Source: a virus (Duplodnaviria; Heunggongvirae; Uroviricota; Caudoviricetes). Taken from it: a stretch of DNA of 64,000 nucleotides. Shown here in pieces: positions 20,023-64,000 of the stretch. Each line of letters opens with the position of its first letter. The stretch's first letter is position 1. The stretch lies in the IMG/VR virus record IMGVR_UViG_3300032280_000361, one strand, 5' to 3'. Under the pieces are notes generated by a model. The model ran no database searches. It was not told the origin of the DNA and worked only from the letters and a program-made list of their open reading frames with translations. Position numbers and translations under genes: made by a program.

Positions 20023-21267
20023 TTATATCAATTCTTTTTTTAATACCTTTTTATTTTTTCTAAAAATAGTAGAGTAGTTATTTACAAAAAATGTCAATTC
20101 ATTTGGGGAGACTTCTTCTAACTCCAATGCCTTAACTAATTCCACATTAGTTTTAGGTATTAGAAAATTATTCTCATCCAATATGTTTTTTAATTTAGTA
20201 GGAATCGGCATCTTTACACAATCTTTCCAAAATGGAGTATCATCTCTTTCGGCTAGATAGTGATATCGGATGAAACATAAATTTTGTTCATTTATCTCAT
20301 AACACCATTTATTATATCTTTCTTTCAACTCCTCATTAAATTCTAAATCAATTAATCTTTTTAACTGCATTATAGTTGACATCAAAGCAGTTGCTTCCAA
20401 TGGTTCAATAAATCCATATGATAAACCTATTGATATTGAATTACCTATCCAACTTCTCTTATGTGTTCCAGGTTTAAAATCAAACACCTTCTGTAGTGTT
20501 ATTTCTTTGCCTACATAATCCTCTATTTCCTTCTTAGCATCCTCTAGTGAAATATAATTATCGTTGAATGCATATCCACATCCCCATCTATGTTGAAGTG
20601 GTATTCTAAACATCCACCCACTATCCATCGATATAACTTCTGTGAAGGTTTTATCACCAAACTCAATCTCATCTTCCTGTGGCAGAAAATACCCAAATGC
20701 TTTATTTAATAAAAGATATTTTGAATAATCAACCCACTCTTCATTATGAACTTTATCTATTATAATTCTAGCAAAACCACTACAATCAAATACAAAATCC
20801 AAATCAATAATACCACCATCTTTTAATTCTAAATTAACTATAGTTTCACCATTATTATTAATATGGATAACTTCATCATCTATACATTTAACTCCTCTAT
20901 CTGTAGCAATTTCTTTGAAGTATTTAGCAACCAATCTCGCATCGAAATGATATGCGTATTGATTGGTAAACTGATTTGGTTCATCACCGGTAAATAGGTG
21001 TCGCATCAACTCATTTTTACCCGTCCAATTATATAAATCTAATCCACCTTTTAAAGTAGAACCTGTGTTCTCAAAGAATTCCTTTTGATTAATTCCCAAT
21101 AGAGCTAACATTCTACCGAAGTTAGGAGTACCACCTTCACCCGCCCCCAATATCCCTATTTTAGAACTTTCTATTAGGGTAACCTCTGTATCTTCCCAAA
21201 ATTTATTAACTACTAAAGCAGTTAACCACGCAGAAGCACCACCCCCAATTATAACAATTTTTTTCAT
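20023..21267 (-). CDS. flavin-dependent halogenase (tryptophan halogenase family)
   Basis: IIGGGASAW FAD motif, IESSKIGILGAGEGGTPNF, signature GWMFRIPLQHRWGCGYAF (GWxWxIP). Confidence 0.8.
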   Translation of the reverse strand: MKKIVIIGGGASAWLTALVVNKFWEDTEVTLIESSKIGILGAGEGGTPNFGRMLALLGINQKEFFENTGSTLKGGLDLYNWTGKNELMRHLFTGDEPNQFTNQYAYHFDARLVAKYFKEIATDRGVKCIDDEVIHINNNGETIVNLELKDGGIIDLDFVFDCSGFARIIIDKVHNEEWVDYSKYLLLNKAFGYFLPQEDEIEFGDKTFTEVISMDSGWMFRIPLQHRWGCGYAFNDNYISLEDAKKEIEDYVGKEITLQKVFDFKPGTHKRSWIGNSISIGLSYGFIEPLEATALMSTIMQLKRLIDLEFNEELKERYNKWCYEINEQNLCFIRYHYLAERDDTPFWKDCVKMPIPTKLKNILDENNFLIPKTNVELVKALELEEVSPNELTFFVNNYSTIFRKNKKVLKKELI

Positions 21268-27346: not shown

Positions 27347-28198
27347 TTATTCGGTTTCTACAAAGGTATAAAAACTTTTTGAATTTTCCAAATCTGGTTG
27401 TGTTTTACTTTCACCTAATCTTATTTCCTCTTCCAAATCATATCTTTCTAACAATCTCTTTACGATACCACTTCTTACACAATCCTCCTTTGAGAACTCT
27501 ACTTGATATACACCCTCTACCCCCATAAAGCGATTCCATATATCATAGAACCCACTCTTTTGATATGCAGGTACTCCATTTGCTCTAAACTTATCACATT
27601 GAGAAAGGTCTCCGCATATTACCAACTTACTATCATCTGATATACGCGTTACGAGTGTTTTTAGCTGAGCAGGAGAGGCGTTCTGCGACTCATCCATAAA
27701 GATGTATGTATTATTAAAGTTCATCCCTCTAAGGAAGTTTAAAACCTTAAATTCTATCTTACCCGCTTCAATCAAACGGATGGTTTCTTTTTCTCCTATA
27801 ATTTTGTGAAGTATTCCTATTGAGGATTCATTGTGATAAGCTATCTTCTCCATCAAATCACCAGGAAGGTGACCTAACTTATCTTCGTTACCAACATCAA
27901 CCGTTGGGTTTATAATAACCATTTTATATATTCCACTATTCCTTTGGTATAACAACTCTATACCTTTTTGTATTCCGATGAATGTCTTACCTGCCCCTGC
28001 CAATGCATGAGCCATAACTATATTATTTTTTTGTGATTCGATTGCCTTATACAATCTCTTTTGATTTCTTGTTTTAAATTCTATTGGTGTTATTAATTTA
28101 GGTATCCCTCCTACTTTGTTTTCTACAATTTCTCCAATTGTGTTTGTAACTGTTTGCTCTGTAGCACTCTTTGTAATCCTTTTAGATACTTTACCCAT
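27347..28198 (-). CDS. phoH: PhoH-like ATPase
   Basis: AHALAGAGKTFIG Walker A, FMDESQNASP Walker B, VICGDLSQCD. Confidence 0.8.
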   Translation of the reverse strand: MGKVSKRITKSATEQTVTNTIGEIVENKVGGIPKLITPIEFKTRNQKRLYKAIESQKNNIVMAHALAGAGKTFIGIQKGIELLYQRNSGIYKMVIINPTVDVGNEDKLGHLPGDLMEKIAYHNESSIGILHKIIGEKETIRLIEAGKIEFKVLNFLRGMNFNNTYIFMDESQNASPAQLKTLVTRISDDSKLVICGDLSQCDKFRANGVPAYQKSGFYDIWNRFMGVEGVYQVEFSKEDCVRSGIVKRLLERYDLEEEIRLGESKTQPDLENSKSFYTFVETE

Positions 28199-35769: not shown

Positions 35770-36222
35770 TTATGAACGATTTACTTTACTCTTAATATCG
35801 TTCCAGCATTTAGAATTGTAGATTTTTTCTGATGCATAAGCCTCCACTTCAAACGGATGCTTCTTATATGAACCCTTAAACTTATTATATTTAGTACGAC
35901 AGGGTTGCAATTGATGAGTCCATTCGTGTATCATTGTATCTACTAACTCCCTAACATCTATTAGGTTTTTATAATATATACAAATTTCATTATCTATCTC
36001 ATCATAATCGCCACAAATTTGTCCATCATCTATCATAGCGGACAAATAGAACATAGGTTTATATCCTTTTCTATTGTTAACCCCCATATTTTGCTTACAC
36101 CATGTGAATACCATAGAAGCAATTCTACCCGTCTCCCTTCTACCAATATCCTTTATTAGTGTCTTAAGATAGATTTTCATCTTAGGTGATTTTGTATAAA
36201 TAGTCTGTATATCCGCTTCCAT
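35770..36222 (-). CDS. putative zinc metallopeptidase-like protein (HExxH)
   Basis: MIHEWTHQLQ motif in 150-aa protein. Confidence 0.35.
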   Translation of the reverse strand: MEADIQTIYTKSPKMKIYLKTLIKDIGRRETGRIASMVFTWCKQNMGVNNRKGYKPMFYLSAMIDDGQICGDYDEIDNEICIYYKNLIDVRELVDTMIHEWTHQLQPCRTKYNKFKGSYKKHPFEVEAYASEKIYNSKCWNDIKSKVNRS

Positions 36223-38161: not shown

Positions 38162-38194
38162 AAACCCATTGAAAATCAATGGGTTATGTATTAT
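38162..38194 (-). terminator. rho-independent terminator after 541-aa repeat protein gene
   Basis: minus-strand AACCCAUUGA-UUUUC-AAUGGGUU + UUUUGUUUUG. Confidence 0.6.
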
Positions 38195-38220: not shown

Positions 38221-39846
38221 TTATTTTTTCTTTTTTAAATATTTTTCGAACTCTTTTTTCAAATCATTAAGAGCTTCTTTTTCATCTTTTCCAAAACCTT
38301 TTACTTGAGTATCATCATCAAAAGTAGGATTTGGTGATGGTATTTCTATATTAGCATAAACTCCCCTTGCAGTTTTAAAATAATCTACATCATATCCATT
38401 AATTGTTTTACCGTTTCCACCTACTTTAATTGTCACTTCTTTTATTGAAATTAAATTTTCTATCTTTAACTCAGCATCTCTATATAATCCACTAACCGCA
38501 CTCTCTAACTCCGCTTCCAATTTCTTTTTAATAGGATGTAGTTTTTTAAGATTATCTACGTGTTTCTTTTCTTGTGGTGTACCCTTTGTTTTTTTGTAGT
38601 GTAACAATTCGGTTTCTATTGCAGCTACGGTTTTATTAAAATCAGATTGGATAGCTTTAACTTCTCTACCTTCGTTTACTGATTCTTTAACACCATCTTT
38701 ACCATCCATTGCATCGTGTACTGAATTTAATTGGTCTACTGCTAATGTAATTTGAGAATACATCCAAGAACTCAATTCTTGTCCTTCTTTCATTCTATCG
38801 GAAATCATTTCAGCGTAATCTTCGATTCTTTCCAAATCGCCCATTGCCATTTCCTTCAAACCTCTTAGGATTTCTTCTGGTGATTTATTATCTTCTTCGT
38901 TTATTGATTCTTTTAATCCTGTTTTTGTAAAATCCGCACTAATAATACCTTTTCTTACATCAACATCTTTAACACCTGCTTTTTTCATTTCAGCCCCCAC
39001 CTTATCTATAATATCTTGTGTTACTCCATAAAAACCAAGAAAATAATTACCCTCATATCTATATCCTCCTCTTTGAATATTATGGAATCCTCTTACGGAA
39101 GTAGATGTAGTTTTCATTGGTACTATACCATGTTTTTTCAAAATAGCATTTACAACCTTTCTTACAGGTGGCAGTGTAGCTTCGTTTACCGATTCTCTTA
39201 CAAATTTTCCATCTTTATCGGCTACATAATAAGCAATTTGATTATACGAACCACCTCTTTGCTTTTCAATTTTCTCTACTTCTTTTTTAGCATCCTTATA
39301 TGTTGAAAAGACATCTTTAAATACTCCTGTCCCTTGCCCTCTTCCTTTGTTATACCCAATATAGTATTTATCTTCGTTCACCGATTCGTACTTAATCATA
39401 TCCGGACTAAACTTATCAAAATTCTGTCTTGCCCACTTTACAGCATCTTCGTAGGAATTGAATTTAATCCTATCCTGTTTGAATCCCTTTGCCTTATTTA
39501 GATAATCAATATAAACTTTTTCTTCGTTTACTGATTCACTAACTACTTTCTTACTTGCAAATGATACAGATGGTATGTTTCCAAATGTTTTATCTATTTT
39601 AGCATCAATTCCAAATTGTGATTTTAACATTTTTACAACACCACTACCAAATTTTATATCGGTAAGTTTAAGATAAATGTAATTTTTATTAGGTGCGTTT
39701 TTAATTTCACCACTTACAAACTTTGAACCTATTGATTTAACAATATCATCTACTACATCCGCTGCAAGATATCCTTTTAAATCAGATTCGTTTAATATAT
39801 TCTTTAATCTCATAGGTATAAATATTATTCTATTTTGGTTTCCCAT
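38221..39846 (-). CDS. leader-family protein 1 with internal ESVNE repeats (true start probably Met12, ~39813)
   Basis: MRLKNILNE leader at residue 12; five ESVNE/ESINE-containing repeats. Confidence 0.5.
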   Translation of the reverse strand: MGNQNRIIFIPMRLKNILNESDLKGYLAADVVDDIVKSIGSKFVSGEIKNAPNKNYIYLKLTDIKFGSGVVKMLKSQFGIDAKIDKTFGNIPSVSFASKKVVSESVNEEKVYIDYLNKAKGFKQDRIKFNSYEDAVKWARQNFDKFSPDMIKYESVNEDKYYIGYNKGRGQGTGVFKDVFSTYKDAKKEVEKIEKQRGGSYNQIAYYVADKDGKFVRESVNEATLPPVRKVVNAILKKHGIVPMKTTSTSVRGFHNIQRGGYRYEGNYFLGFYGVTQDIIDKVGAEMKKAGVKDVDVRKGIISADFTKTGLKESINEEDNKSPEEILRGLKEMAMGDLERIEDYAEMISDRMKEGQELSSWMYSQITLAVDQLNSVHDAMDGKDGVKESVNEGREVKAIQSDFNKTVAAIETELLHYKKTKGTPQEKKHVDNLKKLHPIKKKLEAELESAVSGLYRDAELKIENLISIKEVTIKVGGNGKTINGYDVDYFKTARGVYANIEIPSPNPTFDDDTQVKGFGKDEKEALNDLKKEFEKYLKKKK

Positions 39847-40378
39847 ATATCCTCTTTACAATTCTCTTATTAACCTTAGATAGTTTACGAGTATAATACC
39901 CATCTCCTATGAATTCGGGATTCTTATCACTTCCCAATATATCTATTATCTTCTTTTCATCCCTAACAACAGGTGCTCCTGATGATTTCATAATATCCTC
40001 CATCTTCAAACTAGCCTCAATGAACCACCCATTTGTATTACACAATTGGATAACCTTTTTAACTACATCTGATTTAGCGCTCTTCTTATTGTTAGTACCT
40101 AATAGGGCAATCTTATTACCGAATCTAGTTGGTTTGTATATGATGAAAGCATCTGGCTTCTTATCACTATCCACATCTTTCAATGCAGTTGCTTTGTATT
40201 TTGATTGAAGTTCGGAAGCAGAATTGGCTGATAAATCCATACCTGCATTTAAGTAGGTAGTTTTATACATATCCCATATCTCTTCTATACCTTCATCATC
40301 TATGGATTTTAAATCTAAGGTTACCCACTTATTAGGTGGTATCTCTAACTCATTTAATATTTCAGTTAATCTTATCAT
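39830..40378 (-). CDS. leader-family protein 2 (paralog of 40375-40923)
   Basis: MIRLTEILNE leader; shared EIPPNKW and C-terminal GYYTRKL..IYGKPK. Confidence 0.5.
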   Translation of the reverse strand: MIRLTEILNELEIPPNKWVTLDLKSIDDEGIEEIWDMYKTTYLNAGMDLSANSASELQSKYKATALKDVDSDKKPDAFIIYKPTRFGNKIALLGTNNKKSAKSDVVKKVIQLCNTNGWFIEASLKMEDIMKSSGAPVVRDEKKIIDILGSDKNPEFIGDGYYTRKLSKVNKRIVKRIYGKPK

Positions 40379-40923
40379 CGTGGTTTCCCAAACATCATTT
40401 TAGTGTGAATAGTTCCTGCAATTTTTCTATCATATGAACCATCACCATTCCATTTAAGTTCTTTACCCTTTAATGCTCTACGAACTGCATCCTCATCGTT
40501 AACAGGTACTAAACCCTTAGCCATAAATATATCTCTCATCTTACCGGAAACCTCTACATAATATCCACCCTTCTTTAACTTATCCACTTGATGATTCACC
40601 GCTGCCGATTTACCTGCCGAAGAACCATCATGCCCTAATGCAACAAACTTCTTACCAGCTGTTTTGTATTTAGCTATCGTAACCGCATCTATCTCATCAT
40701 CACCATCTACATCTATCACATCGAAGAAATCACCCTCATCAGGAAGGTCTTCTTTATCTTTCACATTAGAATGACCACCAATTGGAGCATAAGCAGTTGA
40801 AATCAAATCAAATATTATTCTCTTAAAACGAGATAGTTCGGAACGTAGAATTGGAGTCCACTTATTTTGTGGTATCTCAAATCGTTTGTCTGTTTCCTTA
40901 AGTAAATCTCTTAATCGTATCAC
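40375..40923 (-). CDS. leader-family protein 3
   Basis: MIRLRDLLKE leader; paralog of preceding gene (EIPQNKW ... FGKPR). Confidence 0.5.
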   Translation of the reverse strand: MIRLRDLLKETDKRFEIPQNKWTPILRSELSRFKRIIFDLISTAYAPIGGHSNVKDKEDLPDEGDFFDVIDVDGDDEIDAVTIAKYKTAGKKFVALGHDGSSAGKSAAVNHQVDKLKKGGYYVEVSGKMRDIFMAKGLVPVNDEDAVRRALKGKELKWNGDGSYDRKIAGTIHTKMMFGKPR

Positions 40924-41507
40924 AATGTAATTTTTTTATCTATATCGTATTTTTCATAAAAGTTATTAAGAATGTTTACTAAATCATCTATCATTCTTTT
41001 ATGTTTCTTTTGAGAATCAATATCTCCATCTGCGAAATCCGTCTTTGTTAATATAGTAGATATTATCTCTCTAGCACGCATACCTTGTACTGAAAACTTT
41101 TCATTCATTTCTTTATTTTCTTTCCATAATAAATTAGAAAATTTTGAATACATATATTTTTCAACCAATTTGTTTTCTAATTTTTTAAACTTAGCAGATT
41201 GGTCTCTTTTACCTATATAAGCATCCTTTTCAGTTTCTAATTTTATCTGATGTGTTATCTCATGTATAACGGCATATTCCGGGTCTTCCATTCTGTTTAC
41301 ATTAAATGAAATGTAAAGAGCTTTCATTGTTTTAGGATTGAACGTTATTGCAGCACCACCCTTACCAATATTATTAAATTTTACAGGCAGAGGTGTTATT
41401 TTTAAATCCTTGCACAATGCTTCATAATACGCTTTTATACTAGCAGGATTACGAACACCTTCCGTTAATATATCGTTTAACTTAATCATATTATTAAATA
41501 TTATCAA
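40920..41507 (-). CDS. leader-family protein 4 with HExxH motif (start likely Met7, ~41489)
   Basis: MIKLNDILTE leader; AVIHEITHQ zincin-like motif. Confidence 0.5.
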   Translation of the reverse strand: MIIFNNMIKLNDILTEGVRNPASIKAYYEALCKDLKITPLPVKFNNIGKGGAAITFNPKTMKALYISFNVNRMEDPEYAVIHEITHQIKLETEKDAYIGKRDQSAKFKKLENKLVEKYMYSKFSNLLWKENKEMNEKFSVQGMRAREIISTILTKTDFADGDIDSQKKHKRMIDDLVNILNNFYEKYDIDKKITL

Positions 41508-42120
41508 TTATATAATCTAACGTATCATCCTTACCTTTTAAATCCTTCCAATGTTTGGAGTTAATAAACATAGGATATAAACCTGTCATATTAGTATCAG
41601 CTTCCATTTCCCACGGTAGGTTTCTATATGCGGAAATATCTGATTTCATTAATTTACCATACTCCTTTGCATCGATATACTCCTTACCTTTCCATAGGAT
41701 AGAAGTATAATCTTTGTTTGGTAATAACTCACCTTTGGATACCTGCTTAACGTGAGTTAATTCGTGTATCATAGATTGGATAATTCTTTTATATGATTGG
41801 TTAGGATTAAAATGTAAATAGAATTTATTATTATCTACAGAGTTTGAGTTTAATGATATGTCTCCAATCATACCTGCTTTATCTTTTTTCTTTACTATAA
41901 TCTTAGCTTTAAACTTATACTTATCCATCATAAAAGAAACAACCGATTTAACCATTAAGGCTTCATATGGTTTCAATTTTAATGATGTCCCAAATAGGTC
42001 TTCCGATAGTATATCTCTTAACTTAATCATATTACCATTTTTTGCAACTCCAATATCTAGCTTTTGTTCTAGGTCCTGGTTCATCACAATTGTGTCTAGC
42101 TCTAAATGATTTCCTCGCAT
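41494..42120 (-). CDS. leader-family protein 5 with HExxH motif (start likely Met31, ~42030)
   Basis: MIKLRDILSE leader; SMIHELTHVKQ and downstream EMEAD. Confidence 0.5.
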   Translation of the reverse strand: MRGNHLELDTIVMNQDLEQKLDIGVAKNGNMIKLRDILSEDLFGTSLKLKPYEALMVKSVVSFMMDKYKFKAKIIVKKKDKAGMIGDISLNSNSVDNNKFYLHFNPNQSYKRIIQSMIHELTHVKQVSKGELLPNKDYTSILWKGKEYIDAKEYGKLMKSDISAYRNLPWEMEADTNMTGLYPMFINSKHWKDLKGKDDTLDYIIDNI

Positions 42121-42601
42121 CCGGATTCGATTTTCTTATTCTCATTGTTTCCTCACCTGCCGAAGCCGCTGAAGTGCCACCGTGTCCAAAGTTTACCTTA
42201 ACAACATTGCCGGCAGGATTCTTTACATATACTTTAAACTTCTTAACATCACCTTGCATTGGTTTACCCAACTTAACATCTCTACCCTGATATTCTGCTT
42301 CGTTTATCTCCGTAGTATATCCTTTTAAGAAATTAATAAAATCTTCTTCATCTTCATCCTCTACATCTAATTCATCGTAATCATCTGTATTATCATGTCC
42401 ACATTTATGACAAAGATATGGGTCTTTTCCACCATCGGATAAATCCCATTCCCATCCACACTCTGAACATTCTACTGATTGAGTTTCATTTTCATTAACT
42501 GGTACACAATTAGGAACTTGTCTATCTCCTTTCTTTTTCATACCAACTTGCTTATATCCCACCCAACAATCTTCGGATAATATATCTTTTAACTTAATCA
42601 T
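42032..42601 (-). CDS. leader-family protein 6 with zinc-ribbon-like Cys cluster
   Basis: MIKLKDILSE leader; CSECGWEWD..CHKCGHD; acidic DEDEEDF stretch. Confidence 0.5.
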   Translation of the reverse strand: MIKLKDILSEDCWVGYKQVGMKKKGDRQVPNCVPVNENETQSVECSECGWEWDLSDGGKDPYLCHKCGHDNTDDYDELDVEDEDEEDFINFLKGYTTEINEAEYQGRDVKLGKPMQGDVKKFKVYVKNPAGNVVKVNFGHGGTSAASAGEETMRIRKSNPDARKSFRARHNCDEPGPRTKARYWSCKKW

Positions 42602-42602
42602 A

Positions 42603-42935
42603 TTACAACTTTGCTATTAATGATTCATAGTCTAACTCAATTGTAAACTGATATGAACCCTGCTTATGTTTCGCATAGAAATCTAACCCTGTCTTCTTCT
42701 TAACGTATTTGATAATTTCATTATATACCTCATTCACACTATACTTTTCTACCTTAGCCAAATCACCTATAGTAGCGGGTAATAATAGTATTGTATCTGG
42801 TTTAGGCGAGGTTACTATAAAGTTCGCTTTGAAGAACTCTAATTTCTTAGCTTCCGTAATTGGAGCAACCTTAGATGGTTGTTTATTGATAACTGGTATA
42901 GAAACCACATTTGATACAATATCTTTTAATCTCAT
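42603..42935 (-). CDS. leader-family protein 7 (divergent leader)
   Basis: MRLKDIVSN N-terminus, 110 aa. Confidence 0.45.
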   Translation of the reverse strand: MRLKDIVSNVVSIPVINKQPSKVAPITEAKKLEFFKANFIVTSPKPDTILLLPATIGDLAKVEKYSVNEVYNEIIKYVKKKTGLDFYAKHKQGSYQFTIELDYESLIAKL

Positions 42936-42970: not shown

Positions 42971-42999
42971 AATAAAAAAGGGAGTAATTAAACTCCCTC
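42971..42999 (-). terminator. rho-independent terminator
   Basis: minus-strand AGGGAGU-UUAAUU-ACUCCCU + UUUUUUAUUU. Confidence 0.6.
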
Positions 43000-43001
43000 T
43001 A

Positions 43002-48839: not shown

Positions 48840-49148
48840 CTACTTAAGAGTTAACATATCCTCAATCATTTGTACTATGTGGGATGGGCCTTTTTTCAAC
48901 TCCCAAATACCCAATAACCTTCTAATTGGTATTCCACCTCCTAAGTCATCACTCCAAAACCATAATTCATAAAGGGCAGTATCACCTTCACCGATTGGAG
49001 TTCGTTCTATATTAACCTGAATAGTTTTTCTTCTATTATATTTGTATAATTGTATTAAGTAAGCGGTATTCAATGTTTCCACTTTACCAACTCTCCACTC
49101 TCCCGCATCCATTTTGTAAAGTTTGGATATGTTCTTTATGGTTAACAT
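48840..49148 (-). CDS. MLTIKN-family paralog 1
   Basis: N-terminus MLTIKNISKL; TAATG stop/start overlap with next paralog. Confidence 0.5.
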   Translation of the reverse strand: MLTIKNISKLYKMDAGEWRVGKVETLNTAYLIQLYKYNRRKTIQVNIERTPIGEGDTALYELWFWSDDLGGGIPIRRLLGIWELKKGPSHIVQMIEDMLTLK

Positions 49149-49441
49149 TAGTATATTAGATTTTCAATGGCGGAACAAAATGAATCCATATCGGAAATTT
49201 GTGCTTTGTTTAATAGAACGTATGAAGAACCGTATTCCAATTTATACATCCCTACTTTGACACGATTAGGATAACGGTGCAACTTTACATCTCTTTTATG
49301 AGAACCCAACATATCATTTATAAAGATACGATAGACGGCACGGTCGGTAACCATATTGGCGATAATGAAATCCAACCCGATTGTACGGCCGGAAAGCTTA
49401 TCCATATTTTCTATTGTTAATAATCCATGCGTTCTATTCAT
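49148..49441 (-). CDS. MLTIKN-family paralog 2 (degenerate N-terminus)
   Basis: LLTIENMDKL after short extension. Confidence 0.45.
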   Translation of the reverse strand: MNRTHGLLTIENMDKLSGRTIGLDFIIANMVTDRAVYRIFINDMLGSHKRDVKLHRYPNRVKVGMYKLEYGSSYVLLNKAQISDMDSFCSAIENLIY

Positions 49442-49521
49442 ATATTCAGTTTTCTTTTATTATACTCTCCATCAGTCCCCCCCCACCGTCCGAAAATTTT
49501 TAGAGAGGGAATATTGATAGT

Positions 49522-49854
49522 TTAGATATCCCATACTTGCCTCCCATAGATACACACTAACTCACCAAATATCCTCATCAATTCCATTTCGGAAAACAAA
49601 ATCTGCAAAGGTTGATGACCTCCATGTGGATTATGAACGGGCTCTAACCTATACCACCGCCCATCTATACTATCCCTATGAGTTTCCTTCCACAACATAA
49701 GAGCAAGAAAATCCTTTGTCTCACCACTCTCCTTCAACTCCATCATAAAGTGGTAACCGTCTTCCCTCTCCGTTACATCATTGATATGGATATGAAACCC
49801 TCCGCTTTGAAGAGCAAACCCAACAAGCTTTTTATAGTTTTGAATCCTTAACAT
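49522..49854 (-). CDS. MLTIKN-family paralog 3
   Basis: MLRIQNYKKLVGF. Confidence 0.5.
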   Translation of the reverse strand: MLRIQNYKKLVGFALQSGGFHIHINDVTEREDGYHFMMELKESGETKDFLALMLWKETHRDSIDGRWYRLEPVHNPHGGHQPLQILFSEMELMRIFGELVCIYGRQVWDI

Positions 49855-50186
49855 TACGCTATACTATCTTTATGGTTTTCCAATGTACTCTCAACTAATT
49901 CGTAAAGTTGAACGGAATGGAGGATATCCTTCGGTTGTAACATATAAGTACACTTCCAACTCGCACCCACTTGAAACACTTCACATTTATAACCGGATGT
50001 GTATCCCCTATTTTGAGAAACGATACTCTCTTCCCTCTCTATTCGGCAAGTTACGGGTTGCCTATCTCCAATACGTTGCTCAAAGACGAATACATAATAA
50101 TCCGCACCTTCGAACGCCTTTGCCAAATCCCATCCCCATATAACGCCGGAAAGGAGGTCTTTATCGTATCGTTTAATTGTTAACAT
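49854..50186 (-). CDS. MLTIKN-family paralog 4
   Basis: MLTIKRYDKDLL. Confidence 0.5.
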   Translation of the reverse strand: MLTIKRYDKDLLSGVIWGWDLAKAFEGADYYVFVFEQRIGDRQPVTCRIEREESIVSQNRGYTSGYKCEVFQVGASWKCTYMLQPKDILHSVQLYELVESTLENHKDSIA

Positions 50187-50550
50187 ATACTTTGTCTAAT
50201 TGGCGGATAAGTGAATAAATGAATACGTTAGGCGAAACAAAATCATTGTAGTGAAAATAAAAAGAGTTCTCCTTCATAGATGGGCCATAGAGATTCATCC
50301 TATAATGGTCGTGTTCGTTATACATAGGTAGAGTATGTAGATAAGTAGAGTATTCAGTTCTCCCATAGTTAAACCCTATACGATACTGAGGTTCTGATAC
50401 ACTATCCTCTAAGTAAGTATCTACCCATAGGAACTCAATAGAAGAAGGGTACTGAGAGGAACGAACACCTAAGTCGTGTATCCCCATTAGTTTATCCTTT
50501 ATATTCTTTATCTGTAGTAACTTACCACTCTGTATATACTTTATACTCAT
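50173..50550 (-). CDS. MLTIKN-family paralog 5 (extended N-terminus)
   Basis: LLQIKNIKDKL at residue 11; C-terminal VYVNN shared with paralog 8. Confidence 0.45.
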   Translation of the reverse strand: MSIKYIQSGKLLQIKNIKDKLMGIHDLGVRSSQYPSSIEFLWVDTYLEDSVSEPQYRIGFNYGRTEYSTYLHTLPMYNEHDHYRMNLYGPSMKENSFYFHYNDFVSPNVFIYSLIRQLDKVYVNN

Positions 50551-50562
50551 AACATTGTTGAT

Positions 50563-50895
50563 TTACCCGCAACTATTTTCTATTACCTTTAACATCTCCC
50601 TTTCTATAAACCACTTATCCTTTATCTCATCCTTAGTAAGATGGCTATGAGAGAATCCACCACCCTCATTAGGAGATTTTAATTGTTGAGATTGTATTCG
50701 GTAGAGTATCGGTTCTTCGCTCCGCCTATCTCTACTTATGGCAACATCGAACATAGGATAGTTCCACCCGCTTATACTCTCAAATCGGAATGTGTACCAA
50801 TCTTCTAACTCCTCCGTATGTTTGCATTGATATAACTTCCCCTTAATAGAGAAAACAAAATCAATCCAAATGTTATGGTTCTTAATCGTTATCAT
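50563..50895 (-). CDS. MLTIKN-family paralog 6
   Basis: MITIKNHNIWIDF. Confidence 0.5.
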   Translation of the reverse strand: MITIKNHNIWIDFVFSIKGKLYQCKHTEELEDWYTFRFESISGWNYPMFDVAISRDRRSEEPILYRIQSQQLKSPNEGGGFSHSHLTKDEIKDKWFIEREMLKVIENSCG

Positions 50896-51200
50896 TTATA
50901 TGGCTTATATTGATTCATTACCCTAATACTCTTATCTAACCACTCCCAATGTAATTCTAATACGGAACGATTCACCACTCCACTCCAAAGAGGTTGTGTA
51001 CCTGGTGTAGTAGTGAACATCATCATCGGTAACTCCCCTTTAGCGTTCTCAAACCTCCTTCCTAAAAAGATTTGGTATTGGTGGCCAGTTCTACCCGTCC
51101 AAAGAAAAACATAACTATCATTCGTCTCCGTTACGGAATTCAACCTCCATGCTAAGAAAACCTTACCCTCCCCTAATGTATAGTTCTTAATTGTTAACAT
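50892..51200 (-). CDS. MLTIKN-family paralog 7
   Basis: MLTIKNYTLGEG. Confidence 0.5.
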   Translation of the reverse strand: MLTIKNYTLGEGKVFLAWRLNSVTETNDSYVFLWTGRTGHQYQIFLGRRFENAKGELPMMMFTTTPGTQPLWSGVVNRSVLELHWEWLDKSIRVMNQYKPYK

Positions 51201-51510
51201 ATATCATTTTGTGTTTACATACTATCGCTACCAATTCATTCCAATTAGGTATATCCTTTGTATCAATGTATGTATGGTAACCGCTCGTTGTCCATAATCT
51301 ATAACCTAATACCTCACTACCTATACGTTTTTTCTTCCTATCTAAAATGACCAACTGCATCTTTTGTGTATCATATCTACCCGCTTCCATTGGTATAAAC
51401 ATAAATCGGTATTCTATATTGGTTGCATACGCTCCGTACAATATCCATTCATCTCCACCAAAATTAAAATTTGCATTATTTAGATTCTTTATGTTCTTTA
51501 TTGTTAGCAT
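51187..51510 (-). CDS. MLTIKN-family paralog 8
   Basis: MLTIKNIKNLNN; ends MIYVNN. Confidence 0.5.
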   Translation of the reverse strand: MLTIKNIKNLNNANFNFGGDEWILYGAYATNIEYRFMFIPMEAGRYDTQKMQLVILDRKKKRIGSEVLGYRLWTTSGYHTYIDTKDIPNWNELVAIVCKHKMIYVNN

Positions 51511-51803
51511 GGGTAATCACTTAATATACCTTCCATTTGAATTAACATATTATCTTTATCCGCAATCCAATCCATAGTTACCTCATTACTTATATCCCTA
51601 CCATTATATAGTATCTCATAAGTCCGCTTTCCCTCATAAGAAGATAGTGAATCCCTACGAAGACCTATTATACATGTCTTAGCCGTTACATTGTTTGATA
51701 CGATGAAATCATAGAACCTATCATCTTCACTAACGTGTAATACGGAATAGTTAGGATGTAGTACCTTACCTACTAGCTTTTGGTATCCTTTAATCCTTAT
51801 CAT
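51504..51803 (-). CDS. MLTIKN-family paralog 9
   Basis: MIRIKGYQKLVGKVL. Confidence 0.5.
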   Translation of the reverse strand: MIRIKGYQKLVGKVLHPNYSVLHVSEDDRFYDFIVSNNVTAKTCIIGLRRDSLSSYEGKRTYEILYNGRDISNEVTMDWIADKDNMLIQMEGILSDYPC

Positions 51804-51943
51804 ACTCTATGTAGTTTAATCCATTCTAAAGAGAAAGATAATAAAGACCAGGGTGCAGGGTATCCTCTATACTCTTTGCCTTTGGCTATTATTGTTATCG
51901 ATGTGGGTTGCCACCTACCTAACTGATTTATTTCTTTTTCCAT
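51800..51943 (-). CDS. small ORF (47 aa, not in ORF track)
   Basis: MEKEINQLGRWQ...; ATG preceded by conserved GATAAACGATAAACTATG context; ATGA overlap with next gene. Confidence 0.3.
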   Translation of the reverse strand: MEKEINQLGRWQPTSITIIAKGKEYRGYPAPWSLLSFSLEWIKLHRV

Positions 51944-51946
51944 AGT

Positions 51947-52222
51947 TTATCGTTTATCATCGGTATAAGTTTCGTTATAGTATGCCTCAATATCTTCCCT
52001 ACCTACATTGTGTGTACATCCATAGGCAAAATCTATTGTCTGATTCTTTTCCATCTCTAAGTAGTTCCTCTTAAACATCTCCCAATGAATTGAATCGGTT
52101 TGTAAATCCTTCATCAACTCTATTCGTTGGAGGGCTAGGGTAAGTGCTGTTTTCATATTATAAATTAAATTTTTTAAATCTCCAATCTCCTGCCTCCCCA
52201 TCAAAACCACCTCTATCCGCAA
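51947..52222 (-). CDS. hypothetical protein (true start may be internal Met at ~52156)
   Basis: 91-aa ORF overlapping upstream gene by 65 nt unless internal start used. Confidence 0.35.
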   Translation of the reverse strand: MRIEVVLMGRQEIGDLKNLIYNMKTALTLALQRIELMKDLQTDSIHWEMFKRNYLEMEKNQTIDFAYGCTHNVGREDIEAYYNETYTDDKR

Positions 52223-52520
52223 TATCTAATATGTTCTCTAAGAATTGGGTAAAGTTATCCAATGAAATCAAATCTCTCGTAGTTACTCCCATAGGATATG
52301 ATTTTTTGTTAGTCCAATCGTATAACCACATCTGATATCTATAACCTATATCCCTATGTTCGGTAGCCTCTCTTATGATATCCATTCGGTATTGGTTAGT
52401 GGATGTATTTAACTTTATCACATATAGTTTGGTTAAGGTATCCATACCATCAATTCTGAATCTATCTGATACCACTTTGGTAGCCATTGAATAAAATCCC
52501 TTTATCTCTAATCGTTTCAT
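52158..52520 (-). CDS. hypothetical protein
   Basis: 120 aa; start preceded by GATAAACGATAAACTATATG context. Confidence 0.4.
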   Translation of the reverse strand: MKRLEIKGFYSMATKVVSDRFRIDGMDTLTKLYVIKLNTSTNQYRMDIIREATEHRDIGYRYQMWLYDWTNKKSYPMGVTTRDLISLDNFTQFLENILDIADRGGFDGEAGDWRFKKFNL

Positions 52521-52525
52521 ATAGT

Positions 52526-52849
52526 TTATCGTTTATCTTCGAAGTATCTTTTAATTACTGAGTATAATTGGTATCGGAACTCTTCAGCTCCTCTCTTTAA
52601 GTTACTATAACTGAGGTTATGTTGTACATATACTCCATCTACCTTTATCTGTAGTGAACCATTTTGATTAGGTTCTTTGATTAAGTGAACCTTTATAACC
52701 TCACTCCAACCTCCAATCACATATTCGAATTCGTAAGCCCCTTCCCAATTGATGGATGTTACACAATGTCCCAATACCTGTCCATTGGATTTAACTATAT
52801 CTCCCTTAATCTTATCGTGTCCGTCTATGTTAATTAGTTTCATGCTCAA
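52526..52849 (-). CDS. hypothetical protein
   Basis: 107 aa. Confidence 0.4.
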   Translation of the reverse strand: MSMKLINIDGHDKIKGDIVKSNGQVLGHCVTSINWEGAYEFEYVIGGWSEVIKVHLIKEPNQNGSLQIKVDGVYVQHNLSYSNLKRGAEEFRYQLYSVIKRYFEDKR

Positions 52850-60658: not shown

Positions 60659-60928
60659 TTATACTACTTCAACGGTCAGGTCATTATCTATTAACCTCTC
60701 CGCCATTTTAATCATTTCATCTAATCCACCACTCTTCACTTTACACTTACCACTATTATGTACTATCATAGCACATTGTTCTGCCTGATGTGATGAGTGT
60801 CCACATATTCCAACTAAACATGCTATCACATGCTCAAATGAATTAACATCATCATTGTATAATACTAATATAGAGATATCGATTTCTTTCTCTTTACTTT
60901 CTACCTTATCTTTTAAATCAGTCTGCAT
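60659..60928 (-). CDS. clpS: ClpS-like ATP-dependent Clp protease adaptor
   Basis: ISILVLYNDDVNSFEHVIACL ... QAEQCAMIVHNSGKCKV fits ClpS core. Confidence 0.55.
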   Translation of the reverse strand: MQTDLKDKVESKEKEIDISILVLYNDDVNSFEHVIACLVGICGHSSHQAEQCAMIVHNSGKCKVKSGGLDEMIKMAERLIDNDLTVEVV

Positions 60929-61298: not shown

Positions 61299-62192
61299 CT
61301 ATTTGTTTATAAACGGTAATATTGCTAACTCCTTTCCTTTTGCTTCAACCATAATGTCCAAATCCAAGTCGTATGTATTGGGGAGGGCATTAATAAGATA
61401 GGAATGTGCTTGTGGTTTTTCTTTTGGGTTGTTTTCATGTAATGCTTTTGATTCAGAATAATGAACTTCTTGCTTTATCCCTTCAGGCCATGTTGTAGCT
61501 GCTAACTTAAGTGCTTGCTCCTCTGATAAATCACCTGTACAAAATTGATGGTGATGGTAATCAAACACAATAGGTATGTCTGTATTCTGATGGATATACA
61601 TAAGGTCTTTAACTGAATACATAGATGCTTTATCATCATTCTCTACCGTCAATCGTTTACTTACCGATGGCGATAGCCTTTTAAAGTTTTTGATAAATCT
61701 ATCCATAGCAGATTGCTTATCTCCATACACACCATTACAATGAATATTGATATTGTTAAATCGTGTCTTAGATAACCCCATCATATCGAATATCTTACCA
61801 TGCAGTTCTAAATCAGCAATTGCGTTTTTAACTACTTCCTCATTCGGAGAAGTTAATACAACAAATGGACCAGGATGTGAGTTGAGTCGCATATTCCAAA
61901 ACTTAGCGTAATCACCTGCTTTCTTTAACTCCGATTTAATCTCTTTATAATCTTTCAGTTGAGTTAAATCAATATGGTCTCCCCACGGAACAATAGTAGA
62001 TGATAATCTAAAAAGGGATATACCATTCATTCTATTCCACTCTAATATCTTTATAATATCTTTAGCGTTCAATAGAGCAAGTTCTGATACATAATCTAAA
62101 CCCTTTGATTCGAAAGTACGCTTAACCATTGCTCGGTTAGTAGTTACTTTCTTACCCATACTCATATTGATACAAGCGTAGCCTAAATTCAT
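61299..62192 (-). CDS. uvdE: UV damage endonuclease UvdE
   Basis: LGYACINMS, FRLSSTIVPW, HPGPFVVLTSPNEEVVKNAIADL, INIHCNGVYGDK, TVENDDKASMYS, IMVEAKGKELAIL align block-by-block with UvdE. Confidence 0.85.
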   Translation of the reverse strand: MNLGYACINMSMGKKVTTNRAMVKRTFESKGLDYVSELALLNAKDIIKILEWNRMNGISLFRLSSTIVPWGDHIDLTQLKDYKEIKSELKKAGDYAKFWNMRLNSHPGPFVVLTSPNEEVVKNAIADLELHGKIFDMMGLSKTRFNNINIHCNGVYGDKQSAMDRFIKNFKRLSPSVSKRLTVENDDKASMYSVKDLMYIHQNTDIPIVFDYHHHQFCTGDLSEEQALKLAATTWPEGIKQEVHYSESKALHENNPKEKPQAHSYLINALPNTYDLDLDIMVEAKGKELAILPFINK

Positions 62193-62622: not shown

Positions 62623-64000
62623 TTACATTCCAAATCCACCTCCAGGAGGCATCATTGGTGTTTCTTTCTCTTCTTTCTTCACACCGATAACACATTCAGT
62701 TGTTAACAATAGGGAAGCAATACTTGCTGCATTCTCTAAAGCCAAACGAGTTACCTTTGTAGGGTCAATGATACCAGCTGCTACTAAATCCTCAAACTTC
62801 TCAGTTCTCGCATTATAACCATAGTTGCCTACACTACCTTTAACCTCATTGATTACTACTTCAGCAGAACCTCCACCATTTTGAACAATAGTTCTTAAAG
62901 GTGCTTCTAATGCTTTCTTAATAATCTGAACACCGGTGATATAATCAGTATCTTGTCCAACTAAGTTAATTTTAGTTGAATCTTCTAATGCAGTTAGTGC
63001 TCTGATTAAAGCAACTCCACCACCAGGAACAATACCTTCAGCTACCGCTGCTCTTGTTGCGTGTAATGCATCATCTACTCTATCTTTCTTTTCTTTCATC
63101 TCAACCTCTGTAGTTGCACCGATGTATAAGATAGCTACACCTCCACTTAATTTAGCTAATCTTTCCTGCAACTTCTCTCTATCATAATCAGATGTTGCCT
63201 TTTCGATTTGAGATTTAATTAAAGAAATTCTATTCTTAATTTCATCAGCATCTCCACCACCATTTATGATTGTAGTTGTATCCTTATCAATTGTAAGCTT
63301 TTCAGCAGTTCCTAACATATCGATAGTTGCCTTCTCTAATGTATAACCTTTCTCTTCTGAAATTACAGTACCACCTGTTAAGATTGCAATGTCTTCCAAC
63401 ATTTCTTTTCTTCTATCACCAAATGCAGGTGCTTTAACAGCTGCAACTTTCAATGAACCTCTTAACTTATTAACTACTAATGCAGCTAATGCTTCTCCAT
63501 CAACATCTTCAGCAATAATCACTAATGGTTTGTTAGTTTGTGCTGATGATTCTAATAATGGTAGGATTTCTTTTAATGTAGAAATCTTCTTATCATATAA
63601 TAAGATGTATGGTTTCTCCATTTCCGCTTCCATTGATTCTTGATTAGTTACAAAGAATGGAGATGAATAACCCTTATCAAATTGCATACCTTCTACAGTC
63701 TTTACTTCTGTTTCTGTACCCTTTGCTTCTTCAACGGTGATAACACCATCTTTACCAACCTTCTCCATAGCAGTTGCAATCATCGCACCAATCTCAGTAT
63801 CGTTGTTTGCAGATACAGTTGCTACTTGCTCAATCTCTTTTGAAGTTTGAATCTTCTTTGAGATATTAGATAATTCCGCTACTACAACACTAACCGCTTT
63901 GTCGATACCTCTCTTTAAATCCATAGGATTCGCTCCTGCTACTACGTTTTTGTAACCTAATGCGAAAATCTCTTGTGCCAATACGGTTGCAGTTGTTGTA
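62623..64000 (-). CDS. groEL: chaperonin GroEL (N-terminus truncated by window edge)
   Basis: [11 protein letters not shown] at window edge; Ile/Val-rich apical and equatorial blocks; C-terminus [11 protein letters not shown]. Confidence 0.95.

Follow-up and report, generated by a model that had tools for sequence, protein, structure and literature searches.

We analysed a stretch of 64,000 nucleotides from an uncultured marine phage (IMG/VR record IMGVR_UViG_3300032280_000361), hereafter called the window, and in it a cluster of seven abutting genes at 38221–42935, all of which open with a common leader of about ten residues. The base composition of the window is about 32% G+C and nearly all of its genes are carried by the minus strand, as are the seven studied here: g1 (38221–39813, 530 aa, leader MRLKNILNE), g2 (39830–40378, 182 aa, MIRLTEILNE), g3 (40375–40923, 182 aa, GTG start, (M)IRLRDLLKE), g4 (40920–41489, 189 aa, MIKLNDILTE), g5 (41494–42030, 178 aa, MIKLRDILSE), g6 (42032–42601, 189 aa, MIKLKDILSE) and g7 (42603–42935, 110 aa, MRLKDIVSN). 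The leaders follow the pattern M(I)(K/R)L-x-(D/E/N)-(I/L)-(L/V)-x-E. All seven genes were found at the place given in the original prediction, which a model had made from the letters alone, and its remark that three start codons are internal methionines of longer open reading frames (ORFs) applied to g1, g4 and g5. The leader start was also chosen for g1 and g4 by an independent gene call on a public contig. Once the leader starts were used, the intergenic gaps ranged from -4 to +16 nt. A terminator-like hairpin just upstream of g7 (42977–43000, minus strand) closes the preceding transcription unit, and a second one, 36 nt 3' of the g1 stop codon (38163–38185, minus strand), closes the seven-gene unit; the two hairpins bracket the cluster as one discrete transcription unit.

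A regular expression for the leader motif, applied to all six frames of the window, returned six sites, each at the start of a cluster gene; g3 was missed because of its GTG start. The DNA upstream of the seven starts showed no conservation, and synonymous codons varied among the window leaders (TTA/CTA/CTT, TCG/TCC, GAA/GAG). The presence of the leader in the window is not a matter of chance. The leader ends in L-x-E in six of the seven genes, the exception being g7. The prediction had placed (I/L)-L-x-E at residues 7–10 of these six; the motif was present in every one of them, in g1 at residues 6–9.

The bodies that follow the leader had been described as diverging completely. With the pair g2/g3 set aside, this held for every pair: comparison past residue 12 gave E ≥ 0.04 throughout and no detectable relationship. 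The g2 and g3 bodies are related, with 30% identity over 170 aa (E = 8e-17; overall range 30–31%). The individual bodies corresponded to their earlier description: an ES[VI]NE-repeat protein (g1), paralogs (g2/g3), two HExxH proteins (g4, in which the motif reads HEITH, and g5) and a protein with zinc-ribbon matches (g6). Pfam and PHROGs assigned a curated function to none of the seven. The mature forms would be basic in 6/7 proteins, with an isoelectric point of about 9. The g1 protein is built of six modules, with ES[VI]NE at each of the five junctions (39523–39537, 39373–39387, 39181–39195, 38896–38910 and 38671–38685, minus strand), and its orthologs in two other loci (L003 and L045) contain other module sets, joined at ESVNE/ESLNE.

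AlphaFold models were obtained for g3 and g5, and in both a detached leader of low confidence precedes a confident body. The g3 body has a GNAT-like fold (predicted local distance difference test, pLDDT, 85.6), and all top matches in the PDB were GNAT acetyltransferases with template modelling scores of about 0.5, the best being 9mto_B (E = 1e-4, score 0.49/0.59). The leader in this model forms a helix at residues 4–11, with residues 10–12 at pLDDT <50. In the g5 model (pLDDT 89.7) residues 1–12 were <50, and the weak fold matches to minigluzincins, BlaR1 and IrrE agree with the HExxH motif and with faint Pfam hits; the g5 body is a putative small zincin-type metallopeptidase fold. Judging from these hints of a GNAT-like fold in g2/g3 and a zincin-like one in g4/g5, the cargo may include anti-defence proteins or peptidases. 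The g6 body combines a zinc ribbon with the motif CWxGYKQVGMKKKG and with a C-terminal domain that is frequent among marine phages. The N-terminal region of g6 (42499–42593) encodes CWxGYKQVGMKKKGxxxVPNCVP, the conservation of which extends to the DNA (about 80%); the motif matches an internal segment of the cyanophage protein T4-GC_119 (L001:3723–4736), whose gene in T4-like phages of Synechococcus lies beside that of the small terminase. A further HExxH protein of the window (35770–36222, minus strand) has no canonical leader and is homologous to leader-bearing proteins in two other loci (L030, L033); the MKIYLKTLIKD inside this protein may represent a degenerate leader that has Asp as its last residue.

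The distribution of the leader was followed in IMG/VR contigs with a degenerate DNA pattern for MIKL(K/R)DI(L/F)xE. This first scan matched 66 viral contigs (G+C 0.25–0.38, 4–369 kb), and when all 68 matches were checked, 68/68 lay at ORF starts. A second scan, with L at position 7, returned at least 120 contigs, so that both scans together gave at least 180 viral contigs with the leader pattern. Across bacterial and archaeal genomes totalling 596 Gb the first pattern occurred in a single contig, itself phage-like. This contig (L361, NHHP01000001.1, 71.9 kb) belongs to the metagenome-assembled genome Candidatus Pelagibacter sp. TMED166; it contains several leader genes together with primase and gp46-like genes, which makes it phage DNA, and it is either mis-binned or a hint about the host. 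When the 149 leader proteins of the first 66 loci were grouped by body, 54 unrelated families resulted. As an N-terminal module the leader is portable and restricted to phages.

Among 181 distinct leaders conservation was concentrated at K3 (93%), L4 (98%), I/L7 (98%), position 8 (L 83%, I 13%) and E10 (97%), and positions 5, 6 and 9 were variable. Codon use in these leaders was close to background at most positions, including L4, L8, S9, E10 and K3. The leader is conserved and selected at the protein level, and it is not specific to the window. In related phages the leader is kept across the 54 body families, and the cassettes turn over. In contigs nearly identical to the window g5 is missing (L045), g6 is longer (L003) and g1 is remodelled; the g7 ortholog of L003 is 96% identical. 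The locus shows gain, loss and shuffling of cassettes and modules among near-identical relatives.

Two further families with common N-termini were noticed. In a contig of 295,831 bp (L317, IMGVR_UViG_3300023179_004209) nine paralogs within 10 kb start with MIKLKDLLLEGKPxxIFVPRRxEDRxER, that is, with the leader and a conserved extension, and have divergent C-termini. In the window itself a tandem family of about 10–12 genes of 97–125 aa at 48840–52849 (minus strand) starts with MLTIKN, MLRIQN, MITIKN or MIRIKG, and only a few pairs of them are detectably similar past the N-terminus (E about 3e-4).

The leader was compared with the capsid-targeting sequence (CTS) of phage T4, MKTYQEFIAE, next to which cleavage takes place (Mullaney & Black 1996). 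Mutagenesis of T4 IPIII assigned residues 4 and 7 to targeting and residues 8 and 10 to processing, and Asp at position 10 blocked processing, not targeting (PMC9026906). All T4 inner-head proteins join the core via the CTS, after which gp21 cuts after Glu (PMC5694885). The internal proteins of T-even phages are a diverse set with the CTS alone in common, and their loci are hypervariable. The conserved positions 4, 7, 8 and 10 of the leader (L/I8 96%) are the T4 positions for targeting and processing. The resemblance of MIKLKDILSE to MKTYQEFIAE is one of pattern, ten residues being too short to establish homology.

The window is part of a 292,950-bp ENA scaffold (ERZ28594979, KRAE22-1_SAMEA4981781_METAG-scaffold_2). 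One flank of the window carries gp25-like and gp6-like baseplate genes and the other GroES/GroEL, a T4-type RNA ligase, a DNA ligase and Kyano_Gp96. The best annotated relatives of the gp6-like baseplate wedge were Microcystis phage Mel-JY01 (41.7%), LR756508 (39.6%) and immuto (38.7%), and no cultured phage closer than these was found for it. The capsid protein of leader phages had the same three best annotated relatives, each of which has a T4-type protease beside its capsid gene. The stretch between fibre and primase, with an NAD-synthetase-like gene in it, has the gene order of immuto. Together the shared nearest relatives and the immuto-like gene order place the window phage as a jumbo member of the Far-T4 clade, to which RM378, immuto and Mel-JY01 are related. 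Roux et al. 2015 introduced this clade on the basis of viromes; prohead and internal proteins are not mentioned there.

Homologs of T4 gp21, gp20, gp23 and TerL were present in about 20 of the 66 loci of the first scan, with runs of 2–5 leader genes directly after gp21. By Pfam, the neighbours of leader genes included Peptidase_S77 (99–111 bits, cutoff 27), Gp23 and Portal_T4, far above the cutoffs, and the residues of the catalytic region were invariant among the Peptidase_S77 neighbours. A gp21-type protease beside leader genes was found in dozens of related contigs. The link with the protease was tested on 80 loci picked solely by gp21 homology, without reference to the leader. A scoring matrix built from the seven window leaders alone was applied to the N-terminus of every gene, and a score of ≥10 was reached by 64/347 genes between gp21 and the capsid gene versus 6/692 elsewhere (Fisher p = 8e-26). 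The false-match rate of the matrix was 3.5e-5, a score of ≥12 being found at 8/230,092 internal protein positions of related phage loci. The leader genes of relatives lie mostly between the protease and scaffold genes.

The head proteins of these phages carry similar motifs. Capsid proteins of leader phages contain Q-L-(I/L)-x-E about 39 residues before VQPM, and the capsid protein of HTVC008M, a Kyanoviridae T4-like pelagiphage, contains FLGE 38 residues before VQPM; this is the position at which T4 gp23 is cut, after LTE-65. Capsid proteins of related leader phages thus have the φφxE of the leader (φ, hydrophobic residue) at the expected gp23-type maturation site. The scaffold proteins of leader phages begin with M-x-D-L-L-K-E-A and the proteases have Q-I-N-E near residue 20. 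No late-promoter motif could be derived upstream of the capsid genes, the capsid gene abutting the scaffold gene, and a k-mer search of leader-protein bodies for extra cleavage-type motifs gave family-specific words alone.

We consider it likely that the leader M-I-K-L-K-D-I-L-x-E is a T4-like capsid-targeting propeptide of the Far-T4 clade which is removed by a protease. This is what the original prediction had proposed by analogy with T4, including removal by the prohead protease, and it gains support from the portability of the leader, the linkage to Peptidase_S77, the matching positions 4/7/8/10, the φφxE of the capsid proteins and the AlphaFold models.

The leader is one of several classes. 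In a survey of 120 database homologs the g3 body was found, in different phages, behind four leader types: MIKLxDLLNE, MKSLYELYLE / MKSMYQLFLE, MKITKSQLREIIRDIIKE and MENNFDLRKFLTE. All four contain φ-φ-x-E, which is terminal in MIKLxDLLNE, MKSLYELYLE and MKITKSQLREIIRDIIKE and is followed by a linker in MENNFDLRKFLTE. The variant class MKSLYELYLE / MKSMYQLFLE is closer to the T4 CTS. The MKITKSQLREIIRDIIKE and MENNFDLRKFLTE types recur on several genes of the cultured Flavobacterium phage immuto. Both also occur in the uncultured 484-kb phage LR756508, clustered around its gp21, where the MKITKSQL-like type is found at the start of at least ten genes; additional MRLKEILLE-type genes follow the capsid gene of this phage. 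An intein that contains a LAGLIDADG domain is inserted in its Peptidase_S77 gene (LR756508.1, L360:6481–8205, about 156.5–158.2 kb), and the genes around this protease gene start with MK(I/L)xExKLRxIIREEIKE. The same swapping of leader types on one body was seen in the g5 family. In the g5 homolog P0179 the g5-type HExxH body is fused to a canonical GNAT domain.

Comparable sequences also occur inside proteins. In P0020 the g3 body is placed after ...KEFVNE, and the mature N-terminus that this junction would give, AEKRFDIP, is equivalent to the leader-cleaved TDKRFEIP. The g5 homolog P0216 has no N-terminal leader and carries an internal MKKSEIREIIKEELQSLNE between two modules. The ES[VI]NE and MKKSEIREIIKEELQSLNE-type junctions look like internal protease sites, and the proteins that contain them would then be polyproteins.

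The position between the protease and scaffold genes is also the site of the core genes in T4. In addition, g1 with its multiple φ-N-E junctions is as expected for a protein that is cut into small pieces, and the N-termini of the scaffold proteins resemble the end of the leader. The leader could accordingly be a tag for the prohead core, and its proteins scaffold or core accessories that are degraded or expelled at maturation, like T4 gp67, gp68 and gp22, and not ejected effectors. The three T4 proteins are encoded beside gp21, reside in the core and are cut at several (L/I)-x-E sites, which may be compared with g1 and the gp21-adjacent leader genes; however, no sequence similarity to them was found and the window cluster lies outside the head module. 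This explanation accords poorly with g2/g3 and g5, for which compact enzyme-like folds are predicted with confidence and in which internal φ-x-E sites are few, and with the window cluster being a variable cassette far from head genes, comparable to the internal-protein loci of T4. We consider it unlikely.

Several observations weigh against the leader being a capsid-targeting propeptide. The window cluster does not adjoin head genes, and the protease and capsid genes of the window phage were found neither in the window and its flanks nor in about 51 kb walked leftwards on a near-identical 164-kb contig. The walk covered baseplate, fibre, primase, thymidylate synthase, SbcCD-like and glycosyltransferase/radical-SAM-like genes and no head module; likewise there were no T4 core head genes in the window, its 10-kb flanks or within ±10 kb of gp6-like genes. 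In g7 the leader ends without Glu, and the next φ-x-E is I-T-E at residues 26–28. Some lineages whose proteases are closely related (L125, L134, L135) have no leader genes near gp21. Among cultured phages, tblastn with one leader protein gave no match, and a concatenated query of 16 families gave homologs of the bodies, none with the leader except for a degenerate MIRLQEIVGL in immuto. HTVC008M has no leader-like N-termini, so the tag does not extend to marine T4-likes in general. In hydrophobic moment the leader did not exceed shuffled sequences, and the idea of an amphipathic helix was dropped on that account. Finally, codon use was skewed against background at I7 (ATA 91% vs 41%), K5 (AAA 95% vs 76%) and D6 (GAC 47% vs 20%), and some nucleotide-level constraint or recent spread therefore has to be assumed.

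This codon bias, the A/T-rich start region and the visible shuffling of modules and cassettes at leader and ESVNE boundaries would all fit conservation at the level of nucleic acid, the leader being a translation-initiation or regulatory element, or a homology block for cassette shuffling, and the peptide having no function. We regard this as highly improbable, as the codons of L4, L8, S9, E10 and K3 are roughly at background, the substitutions are conservative (I/L, K/R, D/E/N), the four leader classes keep φφxE in unrelated nucleotide sequences and the upstream DNA is not conserved.

The distance of the window cluster from head genes would also be consistent with a leader that binds another partner, unrelated to the capsid, for example a chaperonin, a protease adaptor such as ClpS, or else the membrane or a replication compartment, and the window does encode GroEL and a ClpS-like protein, with GroES just past its end. 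Binding to such a partner would leave unexplained the 20-fold enrichment beside Peptidase_S77 genes, the invariant Glu and the φφxE shared with capsid and scaffold proteins, and the finding that internal ...φNE junctions are equivalent to leader ends. The leader is also without hydrophobic signal-peptide character, and an explanation of this kind appears very unlikely to us.

Some further genes were recorded around the cluster and on the way to the head module. The ClpS-like protein is encoded at 60659–60928, GroEL at 62623–63981 and a UvdE endonuclease at 61299–62192, GroES following just past the window end. A tryptophan-halogenase-like gene (20023–21267) and a PhoH homolog (27347–28198) are also present in the window; the former shares 35% identity with its HTVC008M counterpart, which is flanked by the terminase genes there, and the PhoH gene of Far-T4 relatives is found at the capsid gene or within a few kb after it. 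A close relative (IMGVR_UViG_3300032293_000813; L530:10855–20079, L442:13428–19265) encodes a fibre of 1945 aa, after which glycosyltransferase-like and radical-SAM/SPASM-like genes are repeated over about 10 kb. This repeat block separates the SbcCD-like gene from the head module, wherever the latter is located.

For the leader as a capsid-targeting propeptide we infer targeting, packaging, cleavage, retention and ejection of the proteins as follows. Late in infection the leader would recruit each protein into the scaffolding core of the assembling prohead. After closure of the shell, a serine protease of the T4 gp21 type (Peptidase_S77) would cut after the Glu of φ-φ-x-E, which would free the leader and leave the mature protein in the head with the DNA. 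From there the mature protein would probably be delivered into the next host cell. If leader proteins are loaded and processed in the head in this way, the seven-gene cluster would be a variable cassette of head-internal cargo, made up of two GNAT-like, two HExxH zincin-like, one zinc-ribbon, one small and one modular protein. In the modular protein, g1, the ES[VI]NE junctions may be further cleavage sites.

The closest known counterpart is the CTS of T4 IPI, IPII, IPIII and Alt. It too occupies about ten N-terminal residues of otherwise unrelated, mostly basic proteins, has hydrophobic positions 4, 7 and 8 and Glu 10, and is found in a clade with a gp21-type protease and in hypervariable cassettes in which the leader alone is conserved. 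The leader described here differs in its sequence and in its host clade, the distant Far-T4 and not the T-even phages. Its cargo is far larger, with at least 54 families in 66 loci, and it is known from genes alone. In addition, most copies of the leader are found within the head-gene module, immediately behind the protease gene, and several leader classes coexist in the Far-T4 clade. In φKZ, 201φ2-1 and SPN3US, paralogous head proteins likewise have conserved N-termini that are removed after Glu by a gp21-related protease (PMC5694885). Those propeptides are mostly >100 residues and end in A/S/G-x-E, whereas the leader has about 10 residues and ends in (I/L)(L/I)-x-E. Cargo-loading peptides of encapsulins are short portable terminal peptides that send diverse enzymes into an HK97-fold shell. 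They resemble the leader in being short, portable and terminal and in the diversity of their cargo, but they are usually C-terminal and uncleaved, and no protease or DNA packaging is involved. No description of the leader was found in the searchable literature, and the string MIKLKDIL was unmatched there.

A tag of this kind is already known from the T4 CTS; what is notable here is the breadth, the diversity of the cargo, the multiple leader classes and the possible polyprotein processing. More tentatively, and with considerable doubt, we propose that the leader and its sister classes form an exchangeable virion-loading tag used throughout the clade. Such a tag would expose dozens to hundreds of protein families packaged in the head and injected, including GNAT-like and zincin-like enzymes as well as ES(V/I/L)NE polyproteins which the prohead protease would cut, releasing several cargo proteins per gene. 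If this is true, every protein that the Far-T4 phages of marine and fresh waters, abundant and almost uncultured, package in the head and inject would be readable directly from sequence. Injected internal proteins are the first weapons of a phage in a new cell: IPI of T4 blocks a restriction enzyme and Alt ADP-ribosylates the host RNA polymerase. To our knowledge, outside a few model phages injected proteins have been discoverable by proteomics alone. With a recognisable loading tag in Far-T4 phages, candidates for injected effectors and for anti-defence proteins could be catalogued from metagenomes, in phages whose hosts are not in culture. Such a tag would also reveal the exchange of cargo by cassettes and would offer a ready packaging tag for the engineering of Far-T4 capsids.

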